Below are positions 1-19,087 of a DNA stretch of 64,000 bases, piece after piece. The stretch's first letter is position 1. Each line of letters begins with the position of its first letter. The stretch comes from Candidatus Woesebacteria bacterium (GTDB taxonomy: Bacteria; Patescibacteriota; Microgenomatia; UBA1400; PJMF01): contig JASFHL010000004.1 of NCBI GenBank assembly GCA_050123235.1, positions 40,558 through 104,557 of the forward strand, in the 5' to 3' direction. The notes beneath the pieces were generated by a model. That model did not search any database. It was not told where the DNA came from and worked only from the letters and a program-made list of their open reading frames with translations. A program made the position numbers and the translations under genes.

Positions 1-1252
1 GGACAACTGTAGGAAAGACAGTCATCACTCCATTGGGAAAAAAACTATGTAAAGTGTATTCATTAGTGCCTACACCATAACCAAAACTAGGATTACGAAC
101 TAAAACATCTATTCCTTCTTCTAACAATCTTTTTCTAATAGGAATTCCTGCTCCTTCATAAAAAGCGTTAAAACTTAGCAATACTCTTGGAATAATGACA
201 TAAGAAAGTAAAATCAAAGATAAACTTAAATAGAGCAAAAATTTTTTTCTACTAAATTTATTAATCATGAGCAAAATTTCTTTAGCATATTTTTTGAAAA
301 TAAGCAAAAAAACTAAAAAACTAGCTATCCAAATAGAGCGGCTCTGTGTCAAAACAATAATTATCAAAGCCATTAACATTACTAAAACATCTTGTTTTCT
401 TTGCTTAATCAAAACAATTGGTAAATATAAACTAAGCAAAAACAGAGTTACTAAAGCTAATTGATTATGAAAAAGTAAAGTACCAGTAACTCTATGAACT
501 GCATTGTTTTCATCTAAACCCATAGCAAAACTACCACCATGAAGACTTTCTAAAGGAATTCCAATTCCAGATTGTAAAATAAACTGCCAAATGCTAATGC
601 AAAATTGAAAAACTATCACAGCAGCAATTACTACGAATAATAGGGGAAATTTTTTTCTTTTGGCAAAAAAGATATATAAAGTGATAAAAGATGCTAGTAA
701 AATTTGCATATATTGAGATAACCAAACCAAGGAAAAATCGAGAAATGGCGAAAACTTCAATGAAGAACCTAGCGCAATTATAAAGAAAATAAACAAAGAA
801 AGAAAAACAGGCGAAACTTTTTTAAATGAAGTCAATATTTGCCAATTATTATTTTTCCAAATATCTCTCAAAACCATTAGCAAAGATAAAACCCAAAAAA
901 CATTGGAAATATTGACCCCATATCCTTGCCAATAACCATCTTTATATTGTGGCAAAAGCATATCCCATCCTCTGATTATTTCCACAGCATAGTATTTATT
1001 AGGCGTAAAAAATTGAGATGAGAAAACAGCCATCAAAAAGCTAGTTATTGAGCAATCGCGAATTTTTAGATTTAGAAAAAAAGCAGCTATGGCGAATAAC
1101 AACACAATGACTTTGAAACTGGCAAAGCCACCAAAAACTAATAATAAAGATAAAACTATTAATAATAAAACTAAATAATTAGCATCGACTTTGATAAAAG
1201 ATAAAAAAGATTGGAATTTTTTATTTTTTATTGAAAAAAAAGATGTTATCAT
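1..1252 (-). CDS. O-antigen ligase/polymerase-family (Wzy_C-like) polytopic membrane protein, C-terminus outside window
   Basis: Continuous minus-strand reading frame from ATG at ~1250-1252 to window edge (not in ORF track because no stop in window); translation is highly hydrophobic with many TM helices and a 'GYGVGT...LHSFFPNG' segment resembling the conserved periplasmic loop of WaaL/Wzy_C proteins; sits in a glycosyltransferase locus. I did not verify every codon. Confidence 0.45.
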   Translation of the reverse strand, partial: MITSFFSIKNKKFQSFLSFIKVDANYLVLLLIVLSLLLVFGGFASFKVIVLLFAIAAFFLNLKIRDCSITSFLMAVFSSQFFTPNKYYAVEIIRGWDMLLPQYKDGYWQGYGVNISNVFWVLSLLMVLRDIWKNNNWQILTSFKKVSPVFLSLFIFFIIALGSSLKFSPFLDFSLVWLSQYMQILLASFITLYIFFAKRKKFPLLFVVIAAVIVFQFCISIWQFILQSGIGIPLESLHGGSFAMGLDENNAVHRVTGTLLFHNQLALVTLFLLSLYLPIVLIKQRKQDVLVMLMALIIIVLTQSRSIWIASFLVFLLIFKKYAKEILLMINKFSRKKFLLYLSLSLILLSYVIIPRVLLSFNAFYEGAGIPIRKRLLEEGIDVLVRNPSFGYGVGTNEYTLHSFFPNGVMTVFPTVV

Positions 1253-1286
1253 GTTTTGCAATTGTATTATATTTGTATTATTTTAA

Positions 1287-1471
1287 CAGTTAGGCTTTGT
1301 TCTTGTTAAAAAGTAGAACTTATGTTCAGTAAACTAATATTCTAAAAGTGAACCCTTGACGTTAGCCAGAGTTTCTGCGAAGCAGAAGAACATTCTGGCG
1401 AGAGTGGGTGAGTCTTTAGAATATTAGTTTACCAAACATATAAATAATTTAATCAACAAGAATAAAGCCTA
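1287..1471. repeat. ~185-bp nested palindromic element (outer 23-bp IR, inner 18-bp IR, GC-richer ~70-bp core) in divergent promoter region; distant relative of the MITE-like family
   Basis: aacagttaggctttgttcttgtt/aacaagaataaagcctaactgtt and gtaaactaatattctaaa/tttagaatattagtttac; core contains internal hairpins (gccagag..attctggc; ttctgc gaa gcagaa) and 'ttagccagag', '...gtgagtcttta' resembling family core. Confidence 0.6.
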
Positions 1472-1480
1472 ACTGTTAGA

Positions 1481-2680
1481 ATGAAAGCAAATAAAAAAAC
1501 AATTATCATCCCCTTCCAGATGCCTTGGGATTGGTCAGCGGATTATCAAAAGCAAACTTGTTTTGTCTTAGCGAAAAAACATCAGGTAATTGCATTCATG
1601 TATCTTGATGCTGTTTTTTTTCTAAAAAAATTTTTTCAGAAAGAAAAAAAATATCCTCAGCTTCCAAACATCAACTTTTATCAACCCTCATATTTTTTAC
1701 CCTTTCGCCGCCTTGCTCTCATAAACAAAATTAATCAAATTATCAATCTCAAAATTATTGCCTGGAAATACAATCAGGCTCAAAACCTGCTCCACTCATG
1801 GCTCAAAAATATTTTTAGCTTTGAGCAAAAACGAAAAAACGGAAAAGAAAAAAACTTGATTCTCTGGATTTTTGACCCTTCATTTTACTTTTATCCAAAA
1901 ACTCTCAAAGCTACTTCTATCTATGACTGTGTGGACTATCAATGGCGCATCAATGAAGCTGAAAAAAAACAAGTTCAAGCAATGGAAAAAAAATTAATTG
2001 ACAATGTTGACTATTTTCTTGTTAATTCCAAAGCCCTGCAAAAAATCCATCAAAAACAACGAGTAGCTGACTTACTAGTACCACAGGGTTTTCGTTCTGA
2101 TGATTTTCAAAAAGCAAAAGCCGCTAAATCGCTCCCAAAGAACAAACCATTAATAGGCTTTGTAGGAGCCTTAGGCTATCGCCTAGATTATCCGCTACTT
2201 TTTTCTCTCATTGAGAACAACCCCCAGTGGAACTTTGTACTTTGGGGGCCAAAACAAATTGAAAAAAATCTCAAAGCAGATGAGACAGCCAAAAACTTAA
2301 AAAAATTACTTCAGTATGAAAATGTAATCTCTGGCGAAAATAAAAACAGAAAAAAAATTCCTAGTATTATCAAACAATTTGACGTTTGTATGATTCCTTA
2401 CAATCCAAATTATGATTTCAATCGCTACTGCTATCCGATGAAGTTATTTGAATACTTTTACTTAGGCAAGCCAGTAATCTCTACAGAAATTGAAGAACTT
2501 AAATATTTTCCTAAATATGTGAAAATTAGCAATCAAGCTGCTGAATGGGAAAAGCATATTTGTCAGCTACTAAAAAAACCTTGGCAAAAAAAATATCAAC
2601 AGGAACAAAAACAGCTAGCAATAGAAAACAGTTGGGAGAAAAAGGTTGAGATGATTTTAAAATTAATTGCTCGCAGATAA
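1481..2680 (+). CDS. glycosyltransferase, GT1/GT4-like (C-terminal E-x7-E type motif 'PMKLFEYFYLGKPVIS')
   Basis: ORF track protein; C-terminal Rossmann-type GT-B motifs; genomic context. Confidence 0.55.
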   Translation: MKANKKTIIIPFQMPWDWSADYQKQTCFVLAKKHQVIAFMYLDAVFFLKKFFQKEKKYPQLPNINFYQPSYFLPFRRLALINKINQIINLKIIAWKYNQAQNLLHSWLKNIFSFEQKRKNGKEKNLILWIFDPSFYFYPKTLKATSIYDCVDYQWRINEAEKKQVQAMEKKLIDNVDYFLVNSKALQKIHQKQRVADLLVPQGFRSDDFQKAKAAKSLPKNKPLIGFVGALGYRLDYPLLFSLIENNPQWNFVLWGPKQIEKNLKADETAKNLKKLLQYENVISGENKNRKKIPSIIKQFDVCMIPYNPNYDFNRYCYPMKLFEYFYLGKPVISTEIEELKYFPKYVKISNQAAEWEKHICQLLKKPWQKKYQQEQKQLAIENSWEKKVEMILKLIARR

Positions 2681-2734
2681 GCACTGTATAATTAAGCCAG
2701 AAAAAACTATTAAAGCCTGTTAAAATCAATTTTC

Positions 2735-3712
2735 ATGAACTCAAAAATATTTATCGTTATCCCTACCATCCGCAATCTTGATTTTTTGAAAAAATGGAAG
2801 CAGCAATTCCAAAATGTCTCTATTATTATCTGTGAGGATCGTCCTCAAAAAACTATTAAAATTCCTAAAGTAGGAAAAAAAACTTATCATTATTCATGGC
2901 AAGAAATAGACAATGACTTAGGCAAAGATTCATGGATTGTACCCAGAAAAGTCTCTGGCATTCGTAATTATGGTTTTCTTAAAGCTTATCAAATGGGAGC
3001 TAAGATCATCATCACTATTGACGATGATTGTTATCCTGTTAAAGGGCACAAGTTGGTGGATCTGCACTCTCAAAATCTCCAACTTAAAGCTCCAGCAAAA
3101 TGGACCAATACTTACCCAGATGCCCGCCATCTCTATACCCGTGGCATGCCCTACCTAAATAGAGATGAACAGCCAGTGATGCTCAGTCATGGCTTATGGA
3201 CTCGTGTTTTAGATCATGATGGAGCTACTCATTTACAAAACTTAAAATTCAGAGCTAAATTTGCTGAACACTTCTTACAAATTATTCCCAGTGGGGCTTA
3301 TTTCCCAATGTGTTCTATGAATCTAGCTTTTAGAAGAGAAATAACAGCCTTGATGTATTTTCCCTTGATGGCTGAGGATAAAGAAGGTAAACAATGGGGA
3401 TATAATCGCTTTGATGATATTTGGGCAGGCATTTTTGCCAAAAAAATCATGGATCATTTAGGCTATGCTGTTGTCAATGGAGCGCCTTTTGTTAAACATA
3501 AAAAAGCATCTGATCCTTTTAAAAATCTGCAAAAAGAAGCCAAAGGTATTGAAACGAATGAGAAATTATGGAGAGCAGTAGATGAAGTAAAATTGACTAA
3601 AAAAACTACAGCAAGCTGTTATATTGAGCTGGCAAAAAAAACAAAATTCCCTAAGGAAAGATATTTTGAAAAACTAAGAGAGGCAATGCTGATTTGGGGA
3701 GAAATCTTATAA
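2735..3712 (+). CDS. reversibly glycosylated polypeptide / UDP-L-arabinopyranose mutase homolog (GT75 family)
   Basis: Near-diagnostic motif series shared with plant RGP/UAM: 'IVIPTIRNLDFL', 'DDDCY', 'FPMCSMNLAF', 'FDDIWAG', 'HKKASDPFKNLQKEAKGI' (recalled from plant RGP1, which has IVIPTIRNLDFL, DDDCF, FPMCGMNLAF, YDDMWAG, HSKASNPFVNLKKEYKGI). Confidence 0.75.
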   Translation: MNSKIFIVIPTIRNLDFLKKWKQQFQNVSIIICEDRPQKTIKIPKVGKKTYHYSWQEIDNDLGKDSWIVPRKVSGIRNYGFLKAYQMGAKIIITIDDDCYPVKGHKLVDLHSQNLQLKAPAKWTNTYPDARHLYTRGMPYLNRDEQPVMLSHGLWTRVLDHDGATHLQNLKFRAKFAEHFLQIIPSGAYFPMCSMNLAFRREITALMYFPLMAEDKEGKQWGYNRFDDIWAGIFAKKIMDHLGYAVVNGAPFVKHKKASDPFKNLQKEAKGIETNEKLWRAVDEVKLTKKTTASCYIELAKKTKFPKERYFEKLREAMLIWGEIL

Positions 3713-4933
3713 ATATTTTGTCAAAGATTTCAAAAAAGCTTTCTGGCTGTAACTCTTCTTTAATAAAGCACAATTTTTTTTAATCAATTGTTTTTTCTTA
3801 TTAGTGAGCATGGTATACCATTTGATTTTTTTAGCTAATGACTTAATTGATAAGCTATTAACAATCAAATCATCATTTACTCTTCCTAACAATTCAGGGG
3901 TTGCACCAGATCTAAAACCTAATACAGGAGTATTCAAAATCAAAGATTCTAGAGTAGTAAGTCCCAAGGTTTCATATTGAGCTGAAGGAAGAATTGTTAA
4001 ATCAGCAAGTTTAAAATACTTTAAGACATCATCATGTTTAATAGCGCCTAAAAAGAATACATTTTTATATAAAGAATGTCTGAAATAATAATCCCACAGA
4101 GAAAAATAATATTCTATTCTATCACTTGGACCTAGAATAAAGACTTTTATGTTAATCGTATTTTTAATCTCATTAAAAAACTTGATCGCCTTTAATAATA
4201 GATGGACTCCCTTCCTCGGCTCTAATCTAGAACCAATCACAATTAAAAAATCTTTATTAGATACAGAAATATCTTTTCTAGTAATGCTTTTTAATTTATC
4301 CTCATCTATAAAAATAGGGGGATTAATTTTTTCTATATTGTGACTTGAAAGTTTGAAATAATTTATCAGTATTTGTTTAGAAAAATCACTAAAGACAAAA
4401 ATTAAATCTACCTTTTTTAAAATAATTTTTTGCAAATGAAAGAAAAACACATTAGCAAGCTTAAATCTGATTCTTGCAAGCAATTTCCATTGTCTTAAAT
4501 CTTTTTTGGAATACAGGCTTTCTCTCTCTAAAGTTAAGGCGCCATGGAAAAAAAACATTACTTTAAGTTTTTTACTAATAGAACTAAGCAAAAAACCCAA
4601 ACCTGAAGACGTTAAGTTGAGGAAAATATAATCAATTTCATGCTTTGACAGAATTTTTGTTATTAATTTCTTTGTGTTTAGAGCTATAGTAAAACATGTT
4701 TTCAAATAAGATTTGCTTGGCTTTAAATTGTAAAAATAAACTTTTTCACAGGAATTTCTAGCCTGTTTTAGTAAAGGTCGATTTAAACTACTTTTAAAAA
4801 TTCCTGTTAATAAAAAAACATTAGCTTCATGGGACAATGCCTTCAGCATATTAAGATTAACTCTAGTCCCGCCTCCTAACTCCAAAAAATCAAAAATAAT
4901 TAGTATGTTTTTTCCTTGCAATGATTTTTTCAT
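3707..4933 (-). CDS. glycosyltransferase family 4 (GT-B, retaining)
   Basis: 'EPRKGVHLLLKA...LTILPSAQYETLGLTTLESLILNTPVLG' typical GT4 C-terminal domain. Confidence 0.7.
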   Translation of the reverse strand: MKKSLQGKNILIIFDFLELGGGTRVNLNMLKALSHEANVFLLTGIFKSSLNRPLLKQARNSCEKVYFYNLKPSKSYLKTCFTIALNTKKLITKILSKHEIDYIFLNLTSSGLGFLLSSISKKLKVMFFFHGALTLERESLYSKKDLRQWKLLARIRFKLANVFFFHLQKIILKKVDLIFVFSDFSKQILINYFKLSSHNIEKINPPIFIDEDKLKSITRKDISVSNKDFLIVIGSRLEPRKGVHLLLKAIKFFNEIKNTINIKVFILGPSDRIEYYFSLWDYYFRHSLYKNVFFLGAIKHDDVLKYFKLADLTILPSAQYETLGLTTLESLILNTPVLGFRSGATPELLGRVNDDLIVNSLSIKSLAKKIKWYTMLTNKKKQLIKKNCALLKKSYSQKAFLKSLTKYL

Positions 4934-6092
4934 AAAACTCTATACTTTTTTGAGCTGTTTCTTTTAAATTATATCTAGATGAAACAGTTTGAAAAGCGGC
5001 TTCTCCTATTTTTTTACGTAACTCACTACTTGATAATAAAAGACTAATTTTATCAACTGAATCCTTGATATCGTTTTTTTTAATTAACAAACCTGTTTTT
5101 TTGTGTTCAATAATATTTGCTATACCACCCACTTTACTAGCAACTACAGCCTTCTTAAGACTCATAGCTTCAATAATAGTTAAACCAAAGGATTCATATA
5201 ATGATGGAAAAATACAGACATCAGCTAATCGGTATAGTTTTTCCAAAAGATTTCGATCGCCAACATATCCCAGAAAGTGAACCTTCAATAAATCTTCAAC
5301 AGAGAAATGCTGATGTACAAAGTTCTTAAGTCCCAAGTTATCTTCACCAACAATTATAAAATTGGTGAAAGGATGTTTTTTTAGAATATATTTGATTGAT
5401 TTTAAAAAAACAAATATCCCTTTTCTCTTTTCCAATCTACCAAGAAAGAGAACATTTAAATTTTTTTCCTCAGAGGATGCGAGAATTGAATGCTGCTGTT
5501 TTTCCTTTGGTATCTTAATACCTATAGGAAGAATTTTAATTTTTTTATTTTTTAATTTATATATCCTTTTGCAAAAGCTGGCATGTTTGATGGTACTGCT
5601 TGTTAAGACAGTATCTTTACAAGAAACAAAAATTTTTTCCATTGTTGATATTAATCTGGCTGATAAACTATCGTCTTCTTCTATTTGGTATAAGGTTTTA
5701 CTAACAGTATGCAATCTGACCACAATAGGGATATTTAAGAAACCGTTAAAAAATAAAGTAAATATCGAACCTTCAGCCTCCCAATTAGGAAACTCTATCA
5801 GTGAAATTCCTTGTTGTAAATGAATGTAGATTAAATAAAAAGCGATCTGAAAATTATGTATAAAAAATTTTAAAAATCTTTTATTTAGAAAACCAGATTT
5901 AGGAAGCCACCCAAGCGAGTAAATAAAAATATTCCCCCTTTGAAAATGACCCTTCTGTTGCGATCTGGTTAGAATTATAATTTTATTCTTTTTGCTAATT
6001 TCTTTTGCCAGATTTTCAATATAAATTCCTATACCTGAATTTTTTTTATTAGTTAAAATAGGGTAATTCTTATAAACAAAACAAATATTCAT
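4890..6092 (-). CDS. glycosyltransferase family 4
   Basis: 'LGRLEKRKGIFVFL...CIFPSLYESFGLTIIEAMSLKKAVVASKVGG' GT4 motifs; overlaps the downstream GT4 by 44 nt (operon). Confidence 0.7.
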   Translation of the reverse strand: MNICFVYKNYPILTNKKNSGIGIYIENLAKEISKKNKIIILTRSQQKGHFQRGNIFIYSLGWLPKSGFLNKRFLKFFIHNFQIAFYLIYIHLQQGISLIEFPNWEAEGSIFTLFFNGFLNIPIVVRLHTVSKTLYQIEEDDSLSARLISTMEKIFVSCKDTVLTSSTIKHASFCKRIYKLKNKKIKILPIGIKIPKEKQQHSILASSEEKNLNVLFLGRLEKRKGIFVFLKSIKYILKKHPFTNFIIVGEDNLGLKNFVHQHFSVEDLLKVHFLGYVGDRNLLEKLYRLADVCIFPSLYESFGLTIIEAMSLKKAVVASKVGGIANIIEHKKTGLLIKKNDIKDSVDKISLLLSSSELRKKIGEAAFQTVSSRYNLKETAQKSIEFYEKIIARKKHTNYF

Positions 6093-6134
6093 ATCTTGAT
6101 GCTATATAAAAAATATCATATATAATAAGACCTC

Positions 6135-7058
6135 ATGGCTAAAATCTCTGTCGTCGTCTGCACGTATAATAGGAGCCCCCAAATTAATTTCTTCCTAAAA
6201 TACTTTTTACAACAAAAATTCACAAACTATGAATTGCTTATTATAGACCAAAGTACTAATAATAAAACAAAAAAAACTATAAAAAAATATCAAAATAGAC
6301 TAACAATTATTTATCATAGACTAAAGAAAAAAGGAATATCACTAGCTCGTAATTTTGCTATCAAAAAGGCTAAAGGCGAAATCATAGCTTTTACTGATGA
6401 CGATTGTATTGCTGATAAAAATTGGTTAAAGCAGATAAATCAGTCTTTCAAAAAATATAAAAACATCAACCTTATTTTTGGACAAACCTTACCTTTTCGG
6501 CCAGAAAAAAATAAAGGTTTAATCTGTCCTAGTATATTTACAAAAAAAACTATAAAAATTATCCAGCAACCTTGTGTTCATTATAAAAATATTGGCTTTG
6601 GTAACAATATGGCCTTCAGAAAAAAAATTTTTAATCAGATAGGAGTTTTTAAAACATGGTTAGGAATTGGAAGTATTGGTAAATCCGCAGATGATGCAGA
6701 GCTTGCTATCCGAGCATTAATTAAAGGCAACAAAATTTTGTACAAGCCAGATATTAAAATTTACCACAACCGTTGGCTAACAATAAAACAATATAAAAAT
6801 TTAGAACTGACTTATAACTGCGGAGAAATGGCATGCTATGGATACTTTGCTTTTCAAAAATACAATTTTGCTAATAAATTAGTCAAAGACAATTTGATGC
6901 ATTTTTTAAGAAACTGCCAACAAACTGTTATTTCAGTATTCAAATTTAAAAAAAATAGCTTTGTTAATTTCAGGGATCTGACAAAAGAATTTATATTTAA
7001 ATTAAAAGGTATAATAATAGCTTTTTATTTTTATCAATTTGATCCTTTAGTGAGATGA
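6135..7058 (+). CDS. glycosyltransferase family 2
   Basis: 'ISVVVCTYNR...' N-terminal GT-A fold, DxD-like 'FTDDDCIADKNWL'. Confidence 0.7.
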   Translation: MAKISVVVCTYNRSPQINFFLKYFLQQKFTNYELLIIDQSTNNKTKKTIKKYQNRLTIIYHRLKKKGISLARNFAIKKAKGEIIAFTDDDCIADKNWLKQINQSFKKYKNINLIFGQTLPFRPEKNKGLICPSIFTKKTIKIIQQPCVHYKNIGFGNNMAFRKKIFNQIGVFKTWLGIGSIGKSADDAELAIRALIKGNKILYKPDIKIYHNRWLTIKQYKNLELTYNCGEMACYGYFAFQKYNFANKLVKDNLMHFLRNCQQTVISVFKFKKNSFVNFRDLTKEFIFKLKGIIIAFYFYQFDPLVR

Positions 7059-7108
7059 AAAAATTAACAAAATTTATTCAATTAAGGAATCTAGATATAT
7101 CCTTCAAA

Positions 7109-7834
7109 CTATTTTAAATAATAACTCTTCAAAATATCTTTCTTACCATCTCTCTTCACCTTCCCCTTTTCCAACCACAAAATCCGTTCACAATTCTTTT
7201 TTAAAAACTCCAACCAGTGACTGACGATCACAATTGTCTTTTTCTTCTCAAAAAACTCATCGATTTTTTCTTCTGTTTTTATTCTGAATCTTTCATCACC
7301 TACAGCTACATTTTCATCTAAGACTAGAATATCAGGATCAGAATGCACTGCCACTGCAAATCCCAACCTCAAAGTCATGCCCGCAGAATAAGTATATAGC
7401 GGAGCATCGATAAACTGACCAATGTCTGCGAACTCAACAATTTTTTTAAACTTCTGTTTAATTTCTTTTTTGCTCATCCCTATTACCAGGCCATTCAAAA
7501 AAATATTTTCCTCACCTGTTAAATCAGGATGAAAGCCAGCTGATAAATCTATGAGTGATACGATTTTACCATTGGTTTTAACTTTACCTCTGCTTGGGGT
7601 AGTAATGCCAGTAATAATTTTTAGTAATGTAGTTTTACCAGAGCCATTTGCTCCAATGATACCAACTTTCTCTCCTTGATAAATTTTTAGATCAATTTTA
7701 TTTAGAGCTTTAAATTTTTCTTTACGACGACGACGGATAATGTTTTCAGCAAAGGTGGGTTTCTCATGGTGAAGAGTATAAATTTTAGTAATTTTTTGAA
7801 GTGAAACTGCCAATTTTCTTTTTTTCATGCACAT
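7109..7834 (-). CDS. ABC transporter ATP-binding protein, polysaccharide/teichoic-acid export type (Wzt/TagH/KpsT-like)
   Basis: Walker A 'GANGSGKTT', signature 'YSAGMTLRLGF', Walker B 'ILVLDE'; paired with ABC-2 permease. Confidence 0.8.
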   Translation of the reverse strand: MCMKKRKLAVSLQKITKIYTLHHEKPTFAENIIRRRRKEKFKALNKIDLKIYQGEKVGIIGANGSGKTTLLKIITGITTPSRGKVKTNGKIVSLIDLSAGFHPDLTGEENIFLNGLVIGMSKKEIKQKFKKIVEFADIGQFIDAPLYTYSAGMTLRLGFAVAVHSDPDILVLDENVAVGDERFRIKTEEKIDEFFEKKKTIVIVSHWLEFLKKNCERILWLEKGKVKRDGKKDILKSYYLK

Positions 7835-7876
7835 TGGATGGTAAATCAGGAGAGATAATCTGACAAGACGAGAACT

Positions 7877-8656
7877 TTACAACCAATCATCAAAATTAGG
7901 ACTTTCTCTGCGAAAAACAAAAATTGCTAACATCGCTAAAATTAGCGTACTCAACAAGCTGATCATTAAATAAAAAGTCTGCGGGGCAGGCAAAGCTAGA
8001 ATTGAAAAACGGCTAGCCTCGATTAAGGCTGTCATTGGATTAAGGTAAAACAAGAAGTGTAATGATTTTGGAATTAAATCAAGAGTATAAACCACTGGAG
8101 TGGCATAAAACCACAGCGGCATGATTGCTTTGACTACAAAATTAACATCCCGGAATCGAACATTTAAACTAGAGAAAAAAAGCGACAAAGCACTAGTTAA
8201 AACAATTAGCCAAATTAAAATTAGAGGCAAGAAAATTAATCGCGAAAAATTCATTTTTCCTAAAATTAAGACTACTATTAATAATAGTACAAGAGAAATT
8301 AAAAGATGAAATAAATTGGAAAGAACTATTGATAAAGTAATTGCTTCCCGAGGCAGCTTAGCTTTTTGAATTAAAGTTCTTTCAAAAACATAAATTGGGG
8401 TGCTTTTCATCACTGTCATCGAGAAAAAGTTCCAGGGCAGTAGGCCAACAAATAAAAATAAAAAGTAATTATCAATTTTGACTGGTATAAAAAATTGAAA
8501 CACAAAACCAATTACTAACATTTGCAAAAGTGGATTCAAAATTACCCATAAAAAGCCTAAAATTGCATGCTTGTAACGAGCTTTGATTTCTTTTTCAGTG
8601 AGGCTTAATAAAAACTCTAACCAATAATGAAAGTATCTTTTTGAAATTATTTTCAC
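7877..8656 (-). CDS. ABC-2 type transporter permease (Wzm/TagG-like)
   Basis: ~260 aa, 6 predicted TM helices, immediately upstream of Wzt-like ATPase. Confidence 0.7.
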   Translation of the reverse strand: MKIISKRYFHYWLEFLLSLTEKEIKARYKHAILGFLWVILNPLLQMLVIGFVFQFFIPVKIDNYFLFLFVGLLPWNFFSMTVMKSTPIYVFERTLIQKAKLPREAITLSIVLSNLFHLLISLVLLLIVVLILGKMNFSRLIFLPLILIWLIVLTSALSLFFSSLNVRFRDVNFVVKAIMPLWFYATPVVYTLDLIPKSLHFLFYLNPMTALIEASRFSILALPAPQTFYLMISLLSTLILAMLAIFVFRRESPNFDDWL

Positions 8657-8731
8657 AGCACTGAGCAGTATACCTCAAAACTCCCTATTGACGCCTATTA
8701 AAAAATATCTGTATTCTAGATATGTACTATT

Positions 8732-10870
8732 ATGATTAATGTTGTTGGTACTTCACCAATCCCGACCAGTTCTCAAACCCCTGCTGGACAAGCTGCCCCA
8801 CAGACTACTCCTCAAGCTGCCGCTCCAACACCTCCTCCGGCTGCAGCTCAAAAAGCTGGTGGTGCTGGAGTAACTCCTCCCCCTAGTGCTAAACCACCAG
8901 GTAATAAATCTGCTATGAGTCCTCAACTGCAAAATTTATTTAAACAGAAAAAATTATCACCCAAGATGATTATAGCTATTTTGCTATTGGTGTTATTAGT
9001 GGTGGGAGTAATCGTAGGTTTTATTCTCAGTCAACAAAAACAAGAAATTAGGCAGAAAGCTGCAGTAGGTGATTATTGCTTAACTGATGCACAATGCAAC
9101 GTTGCTGGTGGGGAATACTGTGCTCCAAATCATTACTGTGCTATCAGACCTACTGGTGGTGGCTGTCCTAATAATGACCACACTGCCACTAGGTGGATAA
9201 GATTTACCTGCCCAGATGGTTGTACCATAACCCATGAGCCAGGTGATCCCCCAGAGGGCCGATATCGCTGTTATTCAAATCGAGAAGACTTCACAACTCC
9301 AGTTTCCTTAAATGGCGAATGTGGACAAGTAGATGTTTTGGATGAGAATGGAGATTTCTGTGGCTGGACTGAATATAATTGCGATGGCCCATGTGCTGGA
9401 GATGGTGAAGGAGGCACTCCTGTTCCTGGTGCTGCTACTAGTACGCCTGCTCCAACTGGTGTAGGTGGAGTTGAACCAACTCCAATCAGCTATAGTTGTA
9501 ACAGTAGCTGTACCAATACTAGCCAATGCCAAGGAGTCAATCCAAACTATCGCTGCTACACTAGAGCTGAGGGTGAACCAAACTGGAATTTGGCTGAATC
9601 ATGGAATAGCTTCAGTATCTCAGAGATGCCTTCAGCTTGTACCTCTGTTACTGCTTCTGGCGCTTACTATACACCAACTGAATTTAGACAATCAGTTTGG
9701 TGCAATGGAGGTACTGTTTACTTCCGCACTGTTCCTTTAGGTAGCAACGGTGAACCTAATTATGGGAGTGCTGGTAGCTGGAATACTAGCAGTATTAGTG
9801 CTGAGGGTCTACCATCATCCTGTACTAGTATTACTGCCTATGATGCTTATTCTACTCCAACTGAACTTAGACAAGCTTTATGGTGTGGTACTACTGTTTA
9901 TTTCCGCACTGTACCATTAAATAGTAGTGGTGAGCCTAATTTTAGTAATGTTGGCAGCTGGAATAGTAGTAGCATTAGTGCTGAAGGTCTACCATCATCC
10001 TGTACTACTATAACTGGCTATGGAGCTTACATGACCGACTCCAACCTAAGACAATCCCTTTTATGTAACGGTAATGTGAGTTATTACCATGATGTACCAT
10101 TGAACAGTAGCGGAGAGCCTAATTTTAGTAATGTTGGCAGCTGGAATAGCATGAGTTTATCTGAATTTGGATTAGCATCATCTTGTACTACTATAAGTGC
10201 TTATGCAACAAGTAATAATGGAAATACACTTAGACAGGTATTCTGGTGCAATGGCACTAATGGTTATTTCCGTGCCGTAGGTATTGGCAGTCGCTGCAGG
10301 TTGGAAAGCAATCCTAGCTCCATGACTTGTTCTGTGGCCACAGCAGCAGCCCCAACTGCTACTCCAGAACCAGGTGTCTGCGGTTCCTCAGGTTGTAGTC
10401 TTGACAATCCATGTAGCGGTCAACTGGTTTGTATTACAGCTAATGATGGCAACAACTACTGTTCTGAAGCTGATCAAAGCGTCCGAGATGCCTGTGCTAT
10501 CAATCCAAATACAACGACTTGCTGTACAGCACCAACCAGTGCTGTTGCTACTGCTACTCCAACTGATACTGTGGTCAATACCACTATCGATTGTAATGAT
10601 GCTTGTGTGCAGAATTCAGATTGCAGTAATGTCAGTCACATCTGCTGGAATGGTCAATGTCGCTTGTCAGAAAATCCTTCTGACGAACTATGCAGATTAC
10701 CTGGCGGGGGTACCACTACTACTGTCACTTACGAAACCATCCAACAGAGACAAATTCAACCAACCCTACCTTCTCAACTACCAAGCTCTGGTCCTGCTGA
10801 TTGGTTAAAATACCTCAAGGCTGGACTAGGTGTCCTAGGCTTTGGGCTACTACTCTTCTTATTACTCTAA
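8732..10870 (+). CDS. large Cys-rich surface protein: Pro/Ala-rich N-terminal tail, signal-anchor TM with 'GFILSQQKQEIRQKA' motif, 4 x ~60-aa Cys-containing repeats, Cys-rich C-terminal module, C-terminal 'LPSSGPADWLKYLK'+TM tail
   Basis: ORF track protein; internal repeats visible at DNA and protein level (~9572-10293); many N-x-S/T sequons; codon composition raises local GC. Confidence 0.7.
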   Translation: MINVVGTSPIPTSSQTPAGQAAPQTTPQAAAPTPPPAAAQKAGGAGVTPPPSAKPPGNKSAMSPQLQNLFKQKKLSPKMIIAILLLVLLVVGVIVGFILSQQKQEIRQKAAVGDYCLTDAQCNVAGGEYCAPNHYCAIRPTGGGCPNNDHTATRWIRFTCPDGCTITHEPGDPPEGRYRCYSNREDFTTPVSLNGECGQVDVLDENGDFCGWTEYNCDGPCAGDGEGGTPVPGAATSTPAPTGVGGVEPTPISYSCNSSCTNTSQCQGVNPNYRCYTRAEGEPNWNLAESWNSFSISEMPSACTSVTASGAYYTPTEFRQSVWCNGGTVYFRTVPLGSNGEPNYGSAGSWNTSSISAEGLPSSCTSITAYDAYSTPTELRQALWCGTTVYFRTVPLNSSGEPNFSNVGSWNSSSISAEGLPSSCTTITGYGAYMTDSNLRQSLLCNGNVSYYHDVPLNSSGEPNFSNVGSWNSMSLSEFGLASSCTTISAYATSNNGNTLRQVFWCNGTNGYFRAVGIGSRCRLESNPSSMTCSVATAAAPTATPEPGVCGSSGCSLDNPCSGQLVCITANDGNNYCSEADQSVRDACAINPNTTTCCTAPTSAVATATPTDTVVNTTIDCNDACVQNSDCSNVSHICWNGQCRLSENPSDELCRLPGGGTTTTVTYETIQQRQIQPTLPSQLPSSGPADWLKYLKAGLGVLGFGLLLFLLL
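9572..10293 (+). repeat. intragenic tandem repeats: 4 x ~177-183 bp (~60 aa) units inside the 8732-10870 CDS
   Basis: Units start GEPN(W/Y/F)...SWN.SS.S..GL.SSCT.I.AY...LRQ..WC; units 3 and 4 share ~40 identical nt at their 5' ends. Confidence 0.75.
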
Positions 10871-10940
10871 TCTTAGAATAAAATCAAAGAAGGAAAAATA
10901 TAGATTGCTAGATATATATTCTGAAGAAGTGAATAAGCTA

Positions 10941-11098
10941 AAATTTACTATAAATAAATATTGCAGTGTTAAAGCGAGGTCTGGCTAAGCTTAATCTAGC
11001 ACTACATTTACTACCGAGCTTTACTGAGTGAGCTTTATATCTTAAAAATTAATAAGAGGTTGTCGCGAACGACTGCAATATTTATTTATACTAAATTT
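10941..11098 (+). repeat. MITE-like palindromic repeat, full copy A (27-bp TIR, conserved core)
   Basis: TIR aaatttactataaataaatattgcagt / actgcaatatttatttatactaaattt; core gttaaagcgaggtctggctaag...ctaccgagctttactgagtgagc...gcgaacgactg. Confidence 0.8.
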
Positions 11099-11219
11099 GG
11101 ACTGTGTTTTTCGAGCTCAGGATATTTTTTCTTCTTTGACTTTGCTCTAGAAATTGTATTATGATGATTATTAGGCAATAATTTTTGTAAAATTTTAATT
11201 TAGTGAGCAACAAAGAAAT

Positions 11220-12773
11220 ATGACTGATTCCATGAATCCTATGAATCAACAAAGCTCTAATTCAACAGCTAGCAGTAAGCCTAATTCTCAAAACCTCTTC
11301 CAAGGGATAACTAAGAAGATGGCTCAGAATACTAATGTTCAACGCGCAGCATTAAGCCAATTGGGAGCAAGTTCACTAGATAAAGCAAATCCCAACCCAT
11401 CCAGTACAAACAGCCAAAATCTATTAGACTCAATGCCTAGTTCAATAGAGGCAAAACCAAGCCAAGCTCCTATTAAAACAGCATTAAAACAACCATTGCC
11501 TAACACTCCAGCAGATCAAGGTGCAACATTAAAGCAAGCAAGCCCTCCTCCAACTCAAGAAAGTCTTACTGCTCCCAAAACAAAGTCATCAAAAAAAATA
11601 TTTTTAAGTATTGCAGTACTTTTATTTCTTGTATTTGGAGCTGGCGCTGGCTTTATTCTAAGTCAACAGTCACAAGACATTAACCGTCAAGCTACCACTC
11701 CAGAAACTGCCAAACCAACCCTAGCTGTGCTACCTGCCCCTGTTGCCACGCTTTCTGAAAAAGATCAAATTGCTAAAAAGGTACTTACTTGTTTAGACGG
11801 GATGAAGGATAACTCAGGACTTTATCCATATAAACAAAATTGTGACGAAAAAGGTAATTGTGAATCTTTACCAGATAATAATTCTGGTCCACGCCCTATT
11901 TATGCTAGATTTCATTACTACCAAAAAACTAAGGATCCTCAAGAACTTGCTATTTTTAAAAAAGATTTATCAATTAATAATACAGCTGTTTCAGGCATTC
12001 AGAATAACTTCTACAACTGTAAATTAATCGCTGAGATTCAAGCTAGCATTGATGAAATGTGGAACAACAATTTCTTGATGAAGCAAGAAAGAAATCAAGC
12101 TAGAAATATTTGCCTTCTTAGTAAAAACAACCAGCAATTAGAGCAAATCGCAGATCAAAACTTGGACAGTGAATTGGCTAAAAAACCTGATTTTGATCAA
12201 GTATATGACGATCTATCAAGTACAAAGTCAAGTAGTCAAGAAATTTTGCTCAAAACTGACCTCGCTAGTGCTAGCTATTACAGTTCTGAATATGCAGGTC
12301 GTTATTCATTACTCACCCAGAATAGAGAGACTGAATTAAAAAGAGCGATATTCTTTTACAATCAAGCCTTGCTTATGCTCTTTCAAGAAAAACAAACAGC
12401 TAATTTTAAAGATATTTGTACTTTTGGAGAAAGTTCGCTTGATCTCTACAGAGTTACTCAGGATGAGGATTATCTTAAGCTAGCCAAATATCTTTGGAGC
12501 TGGGGTGCTGATCAAACTAGCCATGACTTTTCTACCAAAACAATCTGTGCCTATTTCACTAATAGCCTTTACCAAGAAACACAAGAAGAATCTTATCAAA
12601 CAGCCAGAAGTAATTTAATTAATGATTTGATTGAAAATAATCTTGATAAAACTGGACAAATGAGTTTTGTGACTGGAGATGGCTGTTTTAATTCTGATAA
12701 AGATGCAGCTGGAAAGGTTAGTAAATCAAGTATAGATAATAGCTTATTAGTGAAAGTATTGCTAGCTGAGTAA
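11220..12773 (+). CDS. membrane-anchored secreted protein: Ser/Asn/Pro-rich N-terminal region, TM with 'GFILSQQSQDINRQA' motif, ~370-aa extracytoplasmic domain; no C-terminal anchor motif
   Basis: ORF track protein; shares N-terminal signal-anchor motif with flanking genes. Confidence 0.6.
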   Translation: MTDSMNPMNQQSSNSTASSKPNSQNLFQGITKKMAQNTNVQRAALSQLGASSLDKANPNPSSTNSQNLLDSMPSSIEAKPSQAPIKTALKQPLPNTPADQGATLKQASPPPTQESLTAPKTKSSKKIFLSIAVLLFLVFGAGAGFILSQQSQDINRQATTPETAKPTLAVLPAPVATLSEKDQIAKKVLTCLDGMKDNSGLYPYKQNCDEKGNCESLPDNNSGPRPIYARFHYYQKTKDPQELAIFKKDLSINNTAVSGIQNNFYNCKLIAEIQASIDEMWNNNFLMKQERNQARNICLLSKNNQQLEQIADQNLDSELAKKPDFDQVYDDLSSTKSSSQEILLKTDLASASYYSSEYAGRYSLLTQNRETELKRAIFFYNQALLMLFQEKQTANFKDICTFGESSLDLYRVTQDEDYLKLAKYLWSWGADQTSHDFSTKTICAYFTNSLYQETQEESYQTARSNLINDLIENNLDKTGQMSFVTGDGCFNSDKDAAGKVSKSSIDNSLLVKVLLAE

Positions 12774-12781
12774 AACAAGTA

Positions 12782-13906
12782 ATGAACATTCAAAAAAGCA
12801 GAGCCACCATTAAACGAAGCAAAAAAACTAATCTCAAATTGGTAATAAGTTTATTGTTTATTTTAATGTCAGTGACTGGTTTTTTGGCTGGACTTTATTT
12901 GACTCAGCAAAGACAAGATATTAGACAACAGGCTTATCCTGGGCAAGAATGTGACTATACTTCCCAATGTGATGGCGAAAACGAAGTTTGCAATCCTAAT
13001 ACTCATCGTTGCGAAGGTGGAGTTATCCCAAGTAGCTGTGATTGTACTGCTGCACATACTTGCACCAGTAGCAACCCTAGCTGTGGTAGCTGTGTGCGAT
13101 CGTACTGCTATATTTCACCAGTCACTGGCAACTGTGAACAATGGTGTGAGCCAGTTTGCGGTGATGTCAGTGAAGCATGTGACTTTTATTGTCTAGAATG
13201 TACCAATGCTTCTGATACTTGCGGCCCTCAGCCAACACCTGGCGGCCCGACTCCAACTCCATTCCAACCACCTACAATTACGCCTTATCACACACCGGCT
13301 GTTAGTCCTACACCGACTCCAGCTCAACCAACATCAACTCCGCCCCCAATCTCGAGCCCAACTCCTACAGTGACTGGCGCCCCTAGTTCCACTCCCACAC
13401 CGACTGCCACTTTAAGCCCAACTCCAACCGTGACTGCTAGTCCAACGCCAACTAGTCCTCCTTGGGCCTCACCAACTCCGACTAGCCCACCATGGGCATC
13501 ACCTACCCCCACCAGTCCTCCTTGGGCTTCACCAACTCCGACCTCTCCACCTTGGGTACCAACTAATACTCCAGTGCCTTGGTCAAGTCCGACCCCGATC
13601 GCTTGGACAGTACCAACTAATACTCCTGCTCCATGGGTAGTAGTACCAACTATGATTGATTGTAACTCTATCTGCTACTCTGACTCTGAATGTGCTCAAA
13701 TCGGCTTGATTTGCTATCAAGGCCGCTGCCGCTTGGCTGCTAATCCAGAAGATCAATATTGCCGTCTCCCAGCTAGTGAAGTGATGGTAGAACAACCAGT
13801 TACTCCTGAAGCATTACCAGTTGCTGGCCCAGAAGATTGGCTTAAATACCTGAAGATTGGCCTCAGTGTGCTTGGCATTGGTGCTTTACTCTTCTTGTTA
13901 ATTTAA
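12782..13906 (+). CDS. Cys-rich / Pro-Thr-rich surface protein: TM with 'GLYLTQQRQDIRQQA', Cys-rich domain, PT linker with 4x 'PTPTSPPWAS', C-terminal Cys module 'IDCNSICYSDSECAQ..CRL..NPED..CRLP', 'LPVAGPEDWLKYLK'+TM tail
   Basis: ORF track protein; C-terminal 90 aa paralogous to C-terminus of the 8732-10870 product. Confidence 0.7.
   Translation: MNIQKSRATIKRSKKTNLKLVISLLFILMSVTGFLAGLYLTQQRQDIRQQAYPGQECDYTSQCDGENEVCNPNTHRCEGGVIPSSCDCTAAHTCTSSNPSCGSCVRSYCYISPVTGNCEQWCEPVCGDVSEACDFYCLECTNASDTCGPQPTPGGPTPTPFQPPTITPYHTPAVSPTPTPAQPTSTPPPISSPTPTVTGAPSSTPTPTATLSPTPTVTASPTPTSPPWASPTPTSPPWASPTPTSPPWASPTPTSPPWVPTNTPVPWSSPTPIAWTVPTNTPAPWVVVPTMIDCNSICYSDSECAQIGLICYQGRCRLAANPEDQYCRLPASEVMVEQPVTPEALPVAGPEDWLKYLKIGLSVLGIGALLFLLI
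13441..13560 (+). repeat. intragenic tandem repeats: 4 x 30 bp (PTPTSPPWAS) inside the 12782-13906 CDS
   Basis: ccaac(g/t)cc(a/g)ac(t/c)agtcctccttgggc(c/t)tca units. Confidence 0.75.
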
Positions 13907-13974
13907 GCGATTTTTGAATATCCCAAATAAATTATATTTAAATTATATTAGAGTTATTGTTAAAAGAAGGATTG

Positions 13975-14166
13975 TTGAAACTAACAGTTTAAAATTTACT
14001 ATAGATAAATATTAGAGCGTTGAAGCGAGGTCTGGCTAAAATCGAATTAGCACATAACTTACTACCGAGCTTCACCGAGTGAGCCTTGTATCTTTAAAAT
14101 AAATACAATGTTGCAGCGAACGACTCTAAGATTCATCTATAGTAAATGAGACTGTTTCTGAGTTTA
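13975..14166 (+). repeat. MITE-like palindromic repeat, full copy B (extended ~45-bp imperfect TIR)
   Basis: Same core as copy A, ~85% identical; between surface-protein gene and tRNA. Confidence 0.8.
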
Positions 14167-14230
14167 ATAAACGATAAGTTAATAAAAAAATTAGTTTAGC
14201 TGATATAATTTACTGGGTAAATTCAAAAAC

Positions 14231-14304
14231 GCGCGCGTAGCTCAATTGGTTAGAGCACCAAGCTTATACCTTGGTGGTTCCAGGTTCGAGTCCTGGCGCG
14301 CGCA
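14231..14304 (+). tRNA. tRNA-Ile, anticodon UAU (decodes AUA); no encoded CCA
   Basis: Manual cloverleaf fold: acceptor GCGCGCG/CGCGCGC, D-stem GCTC/GAGC, anticodon stem CCAAG/CTTGG with loop cTTATAc, T-arm CCAGG-TTCGAGT-CCTGG, discriminator A. Confidence 0.8.
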
Positions 14305-14362
14305 CAAAAACACTTAAAAAGATATTTCTTGACTTTTGTAATAGAATATATGTGTATTTATT

Positions 14363-15007: not shown

Positions 15008-15107
15008 CAATATTCCACCAGAACTCCAAAAACCTCAAAGTTCTCCTCATTGTCAATCTTAAATAATCTTTCAAGAAAAAATATGAAAATATGTTAAGAT
15101 ATACATC

Positions 15108-16271
15108 TTGCTTTCAAAAAATGATCGTAAATCAAAAACAAATGTTTTTCAGCAAAATCTCAGCAAAAGTAGTGTAAAATATATCTTTTTGATTAAAGAA
15201 TTTATGAAAAAACTTAAACGAGCAGCTAAACGAATCAAAAACTTGCCCAAAAAAATTATTAAAACCATTAAAAAAAGGTGGAAGCTTTTGCTGGTCTTAA
15301 TTTTGATCATCTCAGCCCTTGCTTTTTTCTTATACAAAAGACAAGAAGCTAATAAAATTATCCTTACTTTTGAAAAACCTCAACGTGAAGATATCACTGA
15401 AACTCTTGAGGTTTCTGGCATTATTGATGCCAAAGAAAAGGCCACCCTTAGATTTATTGCTGGCGGCAAAGTCACTTACCTCGGAGTTCAAGAAGGTGAT
15501 TATGTGAAAAAATGGCAAACCATTGTCATCATTGACCAGCGTGATTTACAAAAAAAATTACAACAGGATTTGAATGATTATATGAAAGAACGTTGGGATT
15601 GGGATCAAGTGCTGGATGATACCAAAGATCGTTGGATTCCCAAATCAGAAGAAAGAGAAAAAGATAAATCTCAATGGGATCTTGATAATACTGTTCTAGA
15701 TGTAGAAATCAGAGATATCGCTATTTCCAACACTGTCATGTCTGCTCCTTTCTCTGGCATTATTGTTAAATCACCCACCAGCACTGCCAATGTACAACTA
15801 CTGGCGACTGACACTTTTGAACTAATTAACCCAGAGACTTTAGTTTTTAGAGCTCAAGTTGATGAGGCTGATATTGCAGCAGTTAGCTTAGATCAAATTG
15901 CCAAACTCACATTTGATGCTTATCCAGATGAAAATATAACTACTCAAGTAAATTATATTGCCTACAAAAGTAGTCAAGCTAGTAGTGGCACTGTCTTTGA
16001 AATTGAATTTCCTATTCTGGAAGAGAATGCTGCTACTAAATATCGTTTGGGCATGAATGGTGATGCTGAAATTAAGTTGAGAAGCAAAGAAAATGTTCTA
16101 ACAATCCCTTTGATAGCTACTAGAGAAAGAAATGGTGAAACTTTTGTTGATCTCAAAACCGGAGAAGAAACTTATGAAGAGAGAAAAATAGAGATTGGCC
16201 TAGAGACTGAAGATAAGGTTGAAGTAATTGATGGCTTAACAGAAAATGATGAGATTTTAATTCCAGAATAA
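15108..16271 (+). CDS. efflux/export periplasmic adaptor (HlyD/MFP family; MacA-like)
   Basis: N-terminal TM, biotinyl-lipoyl-like and beta-barrel segments ('ATLRFIAGGKVTYLGVQEGDYVKKWQTIVIID'); upstream of MacB-like ABC pair. Confidence 0.7.
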   Translation: MLSKNDRKSKTNVFQQNLSKSSVKYIFLIKEFMKKLKRAAKRIKNLPKKIIKTIKKRWKLLLVLILIISALAFFLYKRQEANKIILTFEKPQREDITETLEVSGIIDAKEKATLRFIAGGKVTYLGVQEGDYVKKWQTIVIIDQRDLQKKLQQDLNDYMKERWDWDQVLDDTKDRWIPKSEEREKDKSQWDLDNTVLDVEIRDIAISNTVMSAPFSGIIVKSPTSTANVQLLATDTFELINPETLVFRAQVDEADIAAVSLDQIAKLTFDAYPDENITTQVNYIAYKSSQASSGTVFEIEFPILEENAATKYRLGMNGDAEIKLRSKENVLTIPLIATRERNGETFVDLKTGEETYEERKIEIGLETEDKVEVIDGLTENDEILIPE

Positions 16272-16292
16272 AAAATAGTTAAAATTGCCAAA

Positions 16293-17093
16293 GTGAAATC
16301 ATCCAAAAAAAATAAAACACCAGTGTTACAACTTGTTAAAGTTTCTAAAACTTATCAAGTTGGCTCTCAAACCATCCGAGCGCTCAGAAAAGTTGATTTT
16401 ACTGTTAACAAAGGTGAATTCATCTCAATCATGGGTCCTTCTGGTAGTGGTAAATCTACCTTTTTGCAAGTAGCGAGCATCTTAGCTGAGGCAAGTAGTG
16501 GACAAATCTTCATCCAAGGCAAAGATGTCACTGAATATGATGAAGTAGAAAGAGCTAAACTCAGAAATAAAGAAATTGGTTTTGTGTTTCAAAAATTTAA
16601 TCTGCTATCCAAAACTTCGGCCTTGGATAATGTGGCTCTACCATTACTCTACGCTGGAATCAAAGAAAGTGAGAGAAAAAAAAGGGCTGCAGCAGTCTTA
16701 GAAAAACTAGGATTAGCTGATCGACTAAATAATACTCCTGCTCAGCTTTCTGGTGGTCAACAACAAAGAGTGGCTATTGCTAGAGCCTTAGTCAATGAAC
16801 CTTCGATAATCTTTGCAGACGAACCAACTGGTAACCTTGATTCCAAAAGTGGTGAAGAAGTGGAAAAAATTCTCAAAAAACTGAGCCGAGAGGGTAAAAC
16901 TATTATCATGGTTACTCATGAAGCTTATATCGCCGAGCTAGCCCAAAGACAAGTAGTTATTAAAGATGGAGAGATTATTTCAGACACCCTAAATGGCTCT
17001 CAAACAGAATACACTAGCGAAGCTGTTGAGGAAGAAGATTATCCCAAAAAAAAAATTAATTACACTAAAAGGAAACGTAAAAAGAAAAAATGA
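16293..17093 (+). CDS. ABC transporter ATP-binding protein, MacB/LolD/FtsE-like
   Basis: Walker A 'GPSGSGKST', '[15 protein letters not shown]', Walker B '[12 protein letters not shown]'. Confidence 0.85.
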
Positions 17094-19051: not shown

Positions 19052-19087
19052 TATAGTTAGTAAAATAAAAATCTTGGGGTAAATAGT

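Follow-up and report, generated by a model that had tools for sequence, protein, structure and literature searches.

An ABC-transporter-dependent glycan island beside genes for LPXTG-type envelope proteins in a Candidatus Woesebacteria genome

Described glycan islands and the Woesebacteria locus

The described systems that come closest to the locus considered here, a glycan island and three adjoining envelope-protein genes in a 64-kb stretch of Candidatus Woesebacteria DNA (contig JASFHL010000004.1; the whole stretch is hereafter the window), are the slg clusters of Geobacillus and the SLCT-11 island of Clostridioides difficile. For the slg clusters (G. stearothermophilus NRS 2004/3a, G. tepidamans) it has been proposed that a lipid-linked glycan is transferred to Ser, Thr or Tyr residues by a Wzy_C-domain enzyme, WsaB, and the gene of the target protein lies near the cluster in some species and distant from it in others (PMC2943079). 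In C. difficile strain Ox247, SLCT-11 comprises a 24-kb island of glycosyltransferases, an ABC transporter and a ligase, which is found beside slpA in some strains only; here O-glycosylation of SlpA at Thr-38 is proven, orf19 has a phenotype and the island and the genes beside it are transcribed together (PMC6254364).

The Woesebacteria locus shares with the slg clusters a monoderm host, glycosyltransferases, a Wzm/Wzt exporter, a Wzy_C enzyme and a low-G+C island (the G+C content of the window is 27-41 %). It differs from them in that its candidate targets are LPXTG-type, Cys-rich wall-anchored proteins and not self-assembling S-layer proteins, that it encodes a GT75 pyranose mutase and has no rml genes, that it has two Wzy_C proteins and a DUF4330 protein, and that no initiating transferase was found in the window. 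With SLCT-11 the locus has in common that an island lies beside a hypervariable surface-protein gene in some lineages only and that the glycan would be transferred on the membrane's outer side, whereas the coupling between island and target is one that we infer and transcription is divergent in the window. The island is of the ABC-transporter/Wzy_C kind known elsewhere, here in an under-studied phylum, and what is unusual in it is the GT75 mutase, the doubling of Wzy_C together with DUF4330, and candidate targets of the sortase type.

Both the window and its source contig belong to a metagenome-assembled genome within the Candidate Phyla Radiation (CPR, or Patescibacteria), whose envelopes decide the host attachment of ultra-small episymbionts and are almost uncharacterised. 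If the island glycosylates its neighbours, then the Gram-positive slg/SLCT-11 paradigm would extend to CPR bacteria and to sortase-type proteins, and GT75 furanose mutases would gain a role in bacterial envelopes.

The glycan island and its Wzy_C enzyme

The window holds two adjoining envelope modules, a glycan pathway at positions 1-8656, continuing to the left, and a block of surface proteins at 8732-13906 (Table 1). In this regard, the original prediction of a lipid-carrier, ABC-exporter glycan locus with a WaaL/PglL-superfamily enzyme next to envelope proteins is borne out by the gene content, since profile searches return three glycosyltransferases of the GT-B fold and one GT2, an RGP/UAM homologue and an ABC-2 exporter. 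The genes then assigned to the locus therefore stand, but its start at base 1 does not: on the source contig the island extends at least 9.7 kb to the left of that base, with the rest of the Wzy_C gene, a DUF4330 gene, three GT4 genes, a 315-aa gene without assignment and a second Wzy_C gene of at least 839 aa. The Wzm/Wzt pair is flanked by glycosyltransferase genes, as is characteristic of ABC-transporter-dependent pathways, and positions 1-8656 with the upstream DNA are an ABC-transporter-dependent glycan island. The best NCBIfam match of the permease is the galactan-export Wzm/RfbD (E=1e-22, under cutoff).

Table 1. Features of the window (positions in the 64-kb stretch) and of related loci (positions, where given, in those loci)
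Feature	Position or locus	Strand	Basis or remark
Wzy_C (WaaL/PglL superfamily) membrane enzyme	2..1252	-	N-terminal 417 of 512 aa; C-terminus past window edge
GT-B glycosyltransferase, TuaH-like	1481..2680	+	PF00534 E=1.6e-8; NF047676 TuaH E=3e-24, far below NF047676 cutoff
GT75/RGP homologue, probable NDP-pyranose-to-furanose mutase	2735..3712	+	PF03214 E=4e-56, 191 bits
GT4 glycosyltransferase	3707..4933	-	PF00534 E=2e-21, PF13439
GT4 glycosyltransferase	4890..6092	-	PF00534 E=6e-38
GT2 glycosyltransferase	6135..7058	+	PF00535 E=9e-24
Wzt-type ABC ATPase	7109..7834	-	PF00005 E=2e-23; short form, 241 aa, without extra C-terminal domain
Wzm-type ABC-2 permease	7877..8656	-	PF01061 E=2e-20
712-aa Cys-rich envelope protein	8732..10870	+	Translation; NCBI: hypothetical protein PVJ09_02685, Candidatus Woesebacteria
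Signal-anchor and motif following the transmembrane helix (GFILSQQKQEIRQKA), 712-aa protein	8966..9061	+	Same motif at 11595-11693 and 12836-12934
Four tandem repeats of about 60 aa (...GEPN...SWN.SSIS...SSCT.IT.Y...LRQ..WC...), 712-aa protein	9572..10291	+	Sequence listing
C-terminal sorting signal LPSSGPADWLKYLKAGLGVLGFGLLLFLLL, 712-aa protein	10778..10867	+	Module profile; LPXTG-type, no charged tail
517-aa membrane-anchored protein	11220..12773	+	Translation, motif scan; leader motif, mostly helical orphan C-domain
374-aa protein	12782..13906	+	Leader motif, Cys-rich N-module, Pro/Thr/Ser stalk of about 160 aa, Cys-rich C-module, LPVAGP signal (13814-13903)
30-bp tandem repeat, 3.8 copies, encoding (SPTPTSPPWA)n	13442..13556	+	TRF score 125
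HlyD-like adaptor, MacB-type ABC ATPase, MacB/FtsX permease	15108..18301	+	Pfam; outside glycan island
UppS	19297-20034		Pfam
Wzy_C paralogue and single-transmembrane partner in relatives	L003 374-2746, 6411-7301; L004 9186-9998; L006 1984-2886, 2912-5269; L007 6358-7269		
HlyD/MacB order after surface genes	L001, L005, 15 metagenome loci, L059		
Surface block with HlyD/MacB and DUF87 ATPase	L024, L027, L031, L033-L035, L037, L041, L042, L044, L045, L049, L051, L059		

Relatives were collected from two sides, and carry L numbers: a scan of the GT75/RGP protein against one genome per GTDB species gave 23 loci, of which L001-L007 are the seven closest from CPR bacteria, and a metagenome scan with an alignment of the sorting signal described below gave 32; members of the sorting-signal family itself carry P numbers. 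Among L001-L007, the RGP gene occurs with Wzm/Wzt in six of the seven (L001-L004, L006 and L007, where the Wzt homologues beside Wzm score E=1e-51 to 1e-99), and five of those six also have the TuaH-like glycosyltransferase and a Wzy_C protein of about 510 aa. The TuaH-like gene directly adjoins RGP in L002, L003, L006, L007 and L012 and lies in the same cluster in L004. A polyprenol-phosphate initiating transferase of the WecA/WbaP type was found neither in window positions 1-13906 nor among the upstream genes listed above; in the homologous locus L006, a Bac_transf initiating enzyme (E=2e-40) is encoded directly upstream of Wzy_C, in keeping with a chain built on polyprenol.

GT75 enzymes convert NDP-pyranoses to NDP-furanoses by means of residues whose roles are known, and only two bacterial members have been characterised, MtdL and Hyg20, both from antibiotic pathways (PMC9937993). 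The window protein matches over its full length, and is closer to the plant UAM than to MtdL (UDP-arabinopyranose mutase 8cid, E=3e-29; MtdL 7xpr, E=4e-12), the DDD of its 'ITIDDDCYP' and the reactive Arg of its 'YTRGMPY' aligning with those of 8cid. Its context, in contrast to that of the characterised bacterial members, is an envelope-glycan island. Homologues of 30-42 % identity are also present in Solirubrobacteraceae (Actinobacteria; L013-L023), where one or two GT4 genes follow directly downstream in at least seven loci and a Wzm/Wzt pair or Wzy_C in none.

The identity of the Wzy_C protein holds: the window fragment scores 36.3 bits against PF04932 (cutoff 31.7; E=6e-9), and so is the full 512-aa product on the source contig assigned. 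In an alignment of the fragment with five full-length homologues, R305 (within TQSR), R356, R373, E379 and a GxGxG motif are invariant, and the His of a VH(N) motif is kept in all five full-length sequences; in the window this His falls in the next codon past base 1, where the complementary base, C, is compatible with CAY. The catalytic-loop residues are thus not found missing. Against the PDB, the Wzy_C profile has a sole match, the ligase WaaL of C. metallidurans (7TPG, E=3e-4), in which R305, the arginine of the TxSR motif, and R373 align with arginines of WaaL, and a His-Asn...Glu...Gly motif is likewise aligned. Unlike WaaL, the window enzyme has a longer N-terminal half with a conserved GLDENN...FR...G...HNQ loop. 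A further likeness, of superfamily and of putative catalytic residues, is to the protein O-transferases PglL, PilO and PglS; WaaL and PglL/PglS have the same putative catalytic His/Arg/Glu set (PMC12800693), and the acceptor is therefore not identified by these residues. In other words, the Arg/Arg/His set does not separate a protein O-transferase from other ligases or from polymerases.

Those RGP-type islands that are seen in full have two Wzy_C paralogues each, one of about 510 aa and one of about 790-840 aa, the longer form being of about 790 aa in L003 and L006 and of the length given above on the source contig. The shorter paralogue is followed by a protein of about 270-300 aa with a single transmembrane helix; on the source contig, in L004 and in L006, though not in L007, this protein scores as DUF4330. 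A full-text literature search on DUF4330 found nothing.

The adjacent envelope proteins and their sorting signals

The 712-aa protein consists of a long N-terminal extension, a transmembrane helix with a QQKQEIRQKA leader, four repeats, a Cys-rich C-module and an LPSSGP signal. It shares a Cys-rich N-module with the 374-aa protein, and the C-terminal modules of the two are 45 % identical over 125 residues, both ending in LP(S/V)(S/A)GP(A/E)DWLKYLK and a hydrophobic helix. No Pfam or NCBIfam domain is found in either protein, nor is SLH or any other S-layer domain, such that the 'S-layer-like' coat of the original prediction gives way to proteins with LPXTG-type signals. Its description of Pro/Thr/Ser-rich surface proteins holds for the stalk of the 374-aa protein, including the PTPTSPPWASP repeat, but not for the 517-aa protein, which is neither Pro/Thr-rich nor anchored at its C-terminus. 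The 374-aa gene starts 9 bp past the stop of the 517-aa gene, and the two are therefore probably co-transcribed. As for the 'very many' N-x-S/T sequons that had been put forward as a sign of glycosylation, the 712-aa protein has 14, mostly within its four repeats, where its own composition predicts 9.9±2.6 (p about 0.1), while 3 occur in the 517-aa and 1 in the 374-aa protein. Sequons are thus not enriched, N-links are in any case not what a Wzy_C enzyme would make, and this argument falls.

The three envelope proteins are fast-evolving. When the 712-aa protein, the C-terminal module or the 517-aa protein's C-domain served as query in word-indexed homologue searches, same-contig sequences alone were returned, and for the last of these only the protein itself was recovered among 5.8 billion proteins; the wider family came to light through the exhaustive profile search described below. 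A faint similarity of the 517-aa protein to glycosidases of the (α/α)6 type (GH127, E=0.0018; GH76, E=2.6) would be intriguing, if true, beside a probable donor pathway for L-arabinofuranose or another furanose; this identity was not substantiated, as the PDB gives no match below E=2 and an AF2 single-sequence model was unusable (pLDDT 36).

All three proteins carry, after the transmembrane helix, the motif GF(I/Y)L(S/T)QQxQ(D/E)I(R/N)(R/Q)(K/Q)A, which is found in only these three open reading frames of the window and recurs in relatives. In the family as a whole there are two types of such leader, '...GAGAGFYLTQQSQDVRQQA' and '...ISLRQR...VAPNAPESxPxA', which from their sequences look like a CPR-specific export or processing signal. 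Ahead of the helix, the proteins have 'MIN(A/V)...' at their start and then a long stretch of low complexity (8732-9061, 11220-11693 and 12782-12934 in the window; P0003-P0070), and this stretch is probably cytoplasmic, because basic residues stand just before the helix.

An exhaustive search of 1.84 billion cluster representatives with a profile of the C-module gave at least 371 proteins (163 at E≤1e-10) of 85-1504 aa, in which the match lies nearly always at the extreme C-terminus. The family consensus is QPxLPxELPQ(T/S)GPxDWxNWLKAGLGxLGxGAxLLLLL, and among the matches listed [LIVM]PxxG falls within the last 48 residues in 116 of 151 members. The window proteins, in which a helix some 20 residues long comes after LPSSG or LPVAG, have the pentapeptide-plus-helix form of LPXTG signals. 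The NCBIfam model LPXTG_anchor (TIGR01167) only just reaches its cutoff in canonical relatives (17.8 and 16.2 bits; cutoff 15.9) and does not match the window proteins; in the relatives it covers profile positions 1-28 of 34, the basic tail thus being missing, and the proteins end in ...LLFLLL or ...LLFLLI with no positively charged tail. What the proteins share with the LPXTG substrates of Gram-positive bacteria is a Pro/Thr/Ser stalk, then LPx(T/S)G and, as the very end of the chain, a hydrophobic helix; the differences lie in a conserved GPxDWxNWLK after the pentapeptide, the absent tail, the degenerate window copies and a non-classical N-terminal signal with its long cytoplasmic extension. 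The family appears to be undescribed by current family models. These signals make it probable that a sortase anchors the 712- and 374-aa proteins, whose middles are hypervariable, to the wall. Regardless of any glycosylation, the C-terminal signal family and the two leader types are handles for predicting the surface proteomes of CPR bacteria.

Synteny and the acceptor of the glycan

From these parts, a pathway can be proposed in which the GT-B and GT2 transferases would build a chain on a polyprenol carrier at the cytoplasmic face of the membrane. The GT75 mutase would probably provide one sugar of this chain in furanose form, to be added by the TuaH-like transferase that constantly accompanies it. 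The finished lipid-linked chain would be exported by Wzm/Wzt and transferred on the outer face by the Wzy_C enzyme, with its intact Arg/Arg/(His) set. CPR bacteria are monoderm and are not known to have a lipid A-core, which would set the host apart from that of WaaL and leave a non-LPS acceptor, the likeliest being Ser/Thr residues of envelope proteins, as for WsaB of Geobacillus and Orf19 of SLCT-11. An ABC-exported, complete chain needs a ligase, and neither an LCP ligase nor a Wzx flippase was seen in the window or the loci (by Pfam scans of the open reading frames in the case of the window, which found no STT3 either). On these grounds, O-glycosylation of protein acceptors in general is tentatively ranked first among the readings. 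That the neighbouring proteins specifically are the acceptors is somewhat doubtful, even if the extracellular Pro/Thr/Ser stalks of the 712- and 374-aa proteins, which would be held by the CPR-type signal-anchor and probably by a sortase, are obvious candidates; acceptor sites of PglL-type enzymes typically lie in Ala/Pro/Ser-rich low-complexity stretches.

Conservation of the synteny, put forward as a check on the original prediction, is found in part. The edge of the RGP-type cluster is visible in the window, L001, L005 and L006 (the clusters of L002, L003, L004 and L007 run to the end of the DNA examined), and in all four the cluster adjoins Cys-rich proteins that bear the leader or the LPxxG signal. 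Together with L055, which was found from the protein side, island and surface block thus adjoin in five lineages. The island gene at the junction is Wzm in the window and L006, RGP in L001 and L005, and the TuaH-like glycosyltransferase in L055. Two junctions are co-directional: in L001 the gap is 137 bp, and in L055 the end of Wzy_C, the TuaH-like gene (E=1e-54) and the first surface gene follow one another in one direction, with a stop/start overlap as called. The neighbourhood of a further family member was also counted in favour of protein glycosylation of the family: in L046 it is of the PMT/DPM-synthase kind.

Several observations weigh against this reading. In the window, as in L006, wzm and the first surface gene are divergent. 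About nine related surface blocks with at least 4.5 kb of upstream DNA visible have no glycan-island gene there, and instead a Pgk-like and an S1-like open reading frame (judged by eye from the sequences); of four further members looked up, P0003, P0008 and P0013, on short contigs, have no glycan neighbours, and in P0010 the MacB block described below is present again. The Pro/Thr stalks occur throughout the family and differ neither in content nor in length between island-adjacent proteins and those elsewhere (6.0 % against 5.1 %, p=0.18); moreover, sortase substrates normally have Pro-rich stalks that span the wall. PglL_A (PF15864), Wzy_C_2 (PF11846) and TPR domains are found neither on the Wzy_C fragment nor on the 512-aa product, which thus bear none of the accessory domains that would single out a protein O-transferase. 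A monoderm host is a further difference from PglL, PilO and PglS. Wzy_C proteins of monoderm bacteria may also be polymerases, TuaE being an example. As to anchoring, no open reading frame of 60 aa or more, whether from the window or from 55 related loci, contains a sortase TLxTC motif, and no sortase gene was thus found nearby. What is constant beside the surface block is the HlyD/MacB unit; the glycan island is inserted beside the block in some lineages only. SLCT-11 and the slg clusters show the same pattern of island and target, and the incomplete synteny is, by this analogy, compatible with the model of the original prediction without proving it.

The strongest alternative, and one that is quite possible, is that the product of the island is not a protein glycan but a polysaccharide (secondary cell-wall or capsular) or a lipoglycan, of a teichuronic-acid-like or rhamnan-like kind. 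The Wzy_C enzyme would then be a polymerase and/or a ligase from glycan to glycan or lipid, DUF4330 would be co-polymerase-like, and the adjacency to surface genes would reflect a shared hotspot of variable regions. This would account for the two Wzy_C paralogues with their constant single-transmembrane partner, for TuaH as the best NCBIfam match of the neighbouring glycosyltransferase, for the divergent junctions and for the many related blocks (indeed most) that are without an island; moreover, L003, L004 and L007 have no surface protein within about 10 kb on each side of RGP. It fits less well with a fully assembled, ABC-exported chain, which requires a ligase and not a polymerase, with the lack of LCP and Wzx just mentioned, and with the fact that every RGP-anchored cluster with a visible edge adjoins surface genes, L055, which looks operonic, doing so as well.

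It is improbable that Wzy_C is a protein O-transferase whose targets are other envelope proteins, such as pilins or a general O-glycoproteome, the adjacent three being not special. Enzymes of the PglL type are often general, PilO/TfpO act on pilins, the window encodes five T4SS-pilin (type IV secretion system pilin) paralogues, and a lineage-restricted adjacency fits; no pilin gene lies beside the island, however, and the adjacency recurs in five lineages. N-linked glycosylation of the 712-aa protein in an S-layer, to which its 14 sites had pointed, is scarcely credible, given a sequon count within expectation, the few sites of the other two proteins, the lack of STT3, PglB or AglB among the open reading frames scanned, the O-links or glycan links made by Wzy_C enzymes, and an LPXTG-type anchor in place of any S-layer domain.

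If protein O-glycosylation is taken together with all the other parts, the joint reading would be that Patescibacteria build a covalently wall-anchored glycoprotein coat, which as a whole is unlikely. In it, CPR-specific hypervariable proteins with the leader ...QQxQDxRQQA and the signal LPx(T/S)GPxDWxNWLK, followed by a helix that lacks a basic tail, would receive on their Pro/Thr stalks an O-linked glycan, furanose-containing and ABC-exported, from a Wzy_C/DUF4330 ligase; attachment to the wall by a sortase dedicated to them would follow, and the neighbouring HlyD/MacB proteins might aid release or assembly. Were this true, CPR bacteria would have their first defined system of protein glycosylation and sorting.

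Of the 18 loci whose DNA reaches far enough downstream, about 15 have HlyD, the MacB ATPase and the MacB permease after the surface block, and in at least 10 of those, as in the window, a VirD4-like ATPase comes after the MacB unit. This neighbourhood may reflect a function, in the export or extraction of anchored proteins, or merely a conserved genome backbone. In the window (15108-23562) and in several loci, HlyD/MacB is followed by a VirD4/TraG-like DUF87 ATPase and a conserved gene, U369. In L046/L047 (1529-8946), a family member stands directly after two PMT/PMT_2 (GT-C) genes and near a GtrA/DPM-synthase-like GT2 and sugar epimerase/dehydratase-like open reading frames, a kit for glycosylation of a different, polyprenol-monophosphate type.

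The rest of the window holds housekeeping and T4SS-like genes (DnaA/DnaN, YidC, UppS, Lgt, mevalonate genes, a VirD4-like ATPase and the five pilins). Promoter and terminator scans of 8500-15200 gave signals at or under shuffle expectation and were not used. The pilin genes are tandem paralogues of 128-151 aa that match T4SS_pilin (PF18895; 43885-46716), with a gene for an ECF-type sigma factor upstream (42863-43411). An ATP-dependent DNA ligase of archaeal/eukaryotic type, a mevalonate-pathway kinase and decarboxylase, and a 975-aa DUF4012 protein are also encoded (33435-35339, 46749-48921 and 54357-57284). Between the surface block and the HlyD/MacB unit lies a gene for tRNA-Ile with the anticodon UAU (14231-14305; ARAGORN, and Rfam tRNA with 74.5 bits), an anticodon that is uncommon among bacteria, in which AUA is usually read by a lysidine-modified CAU.

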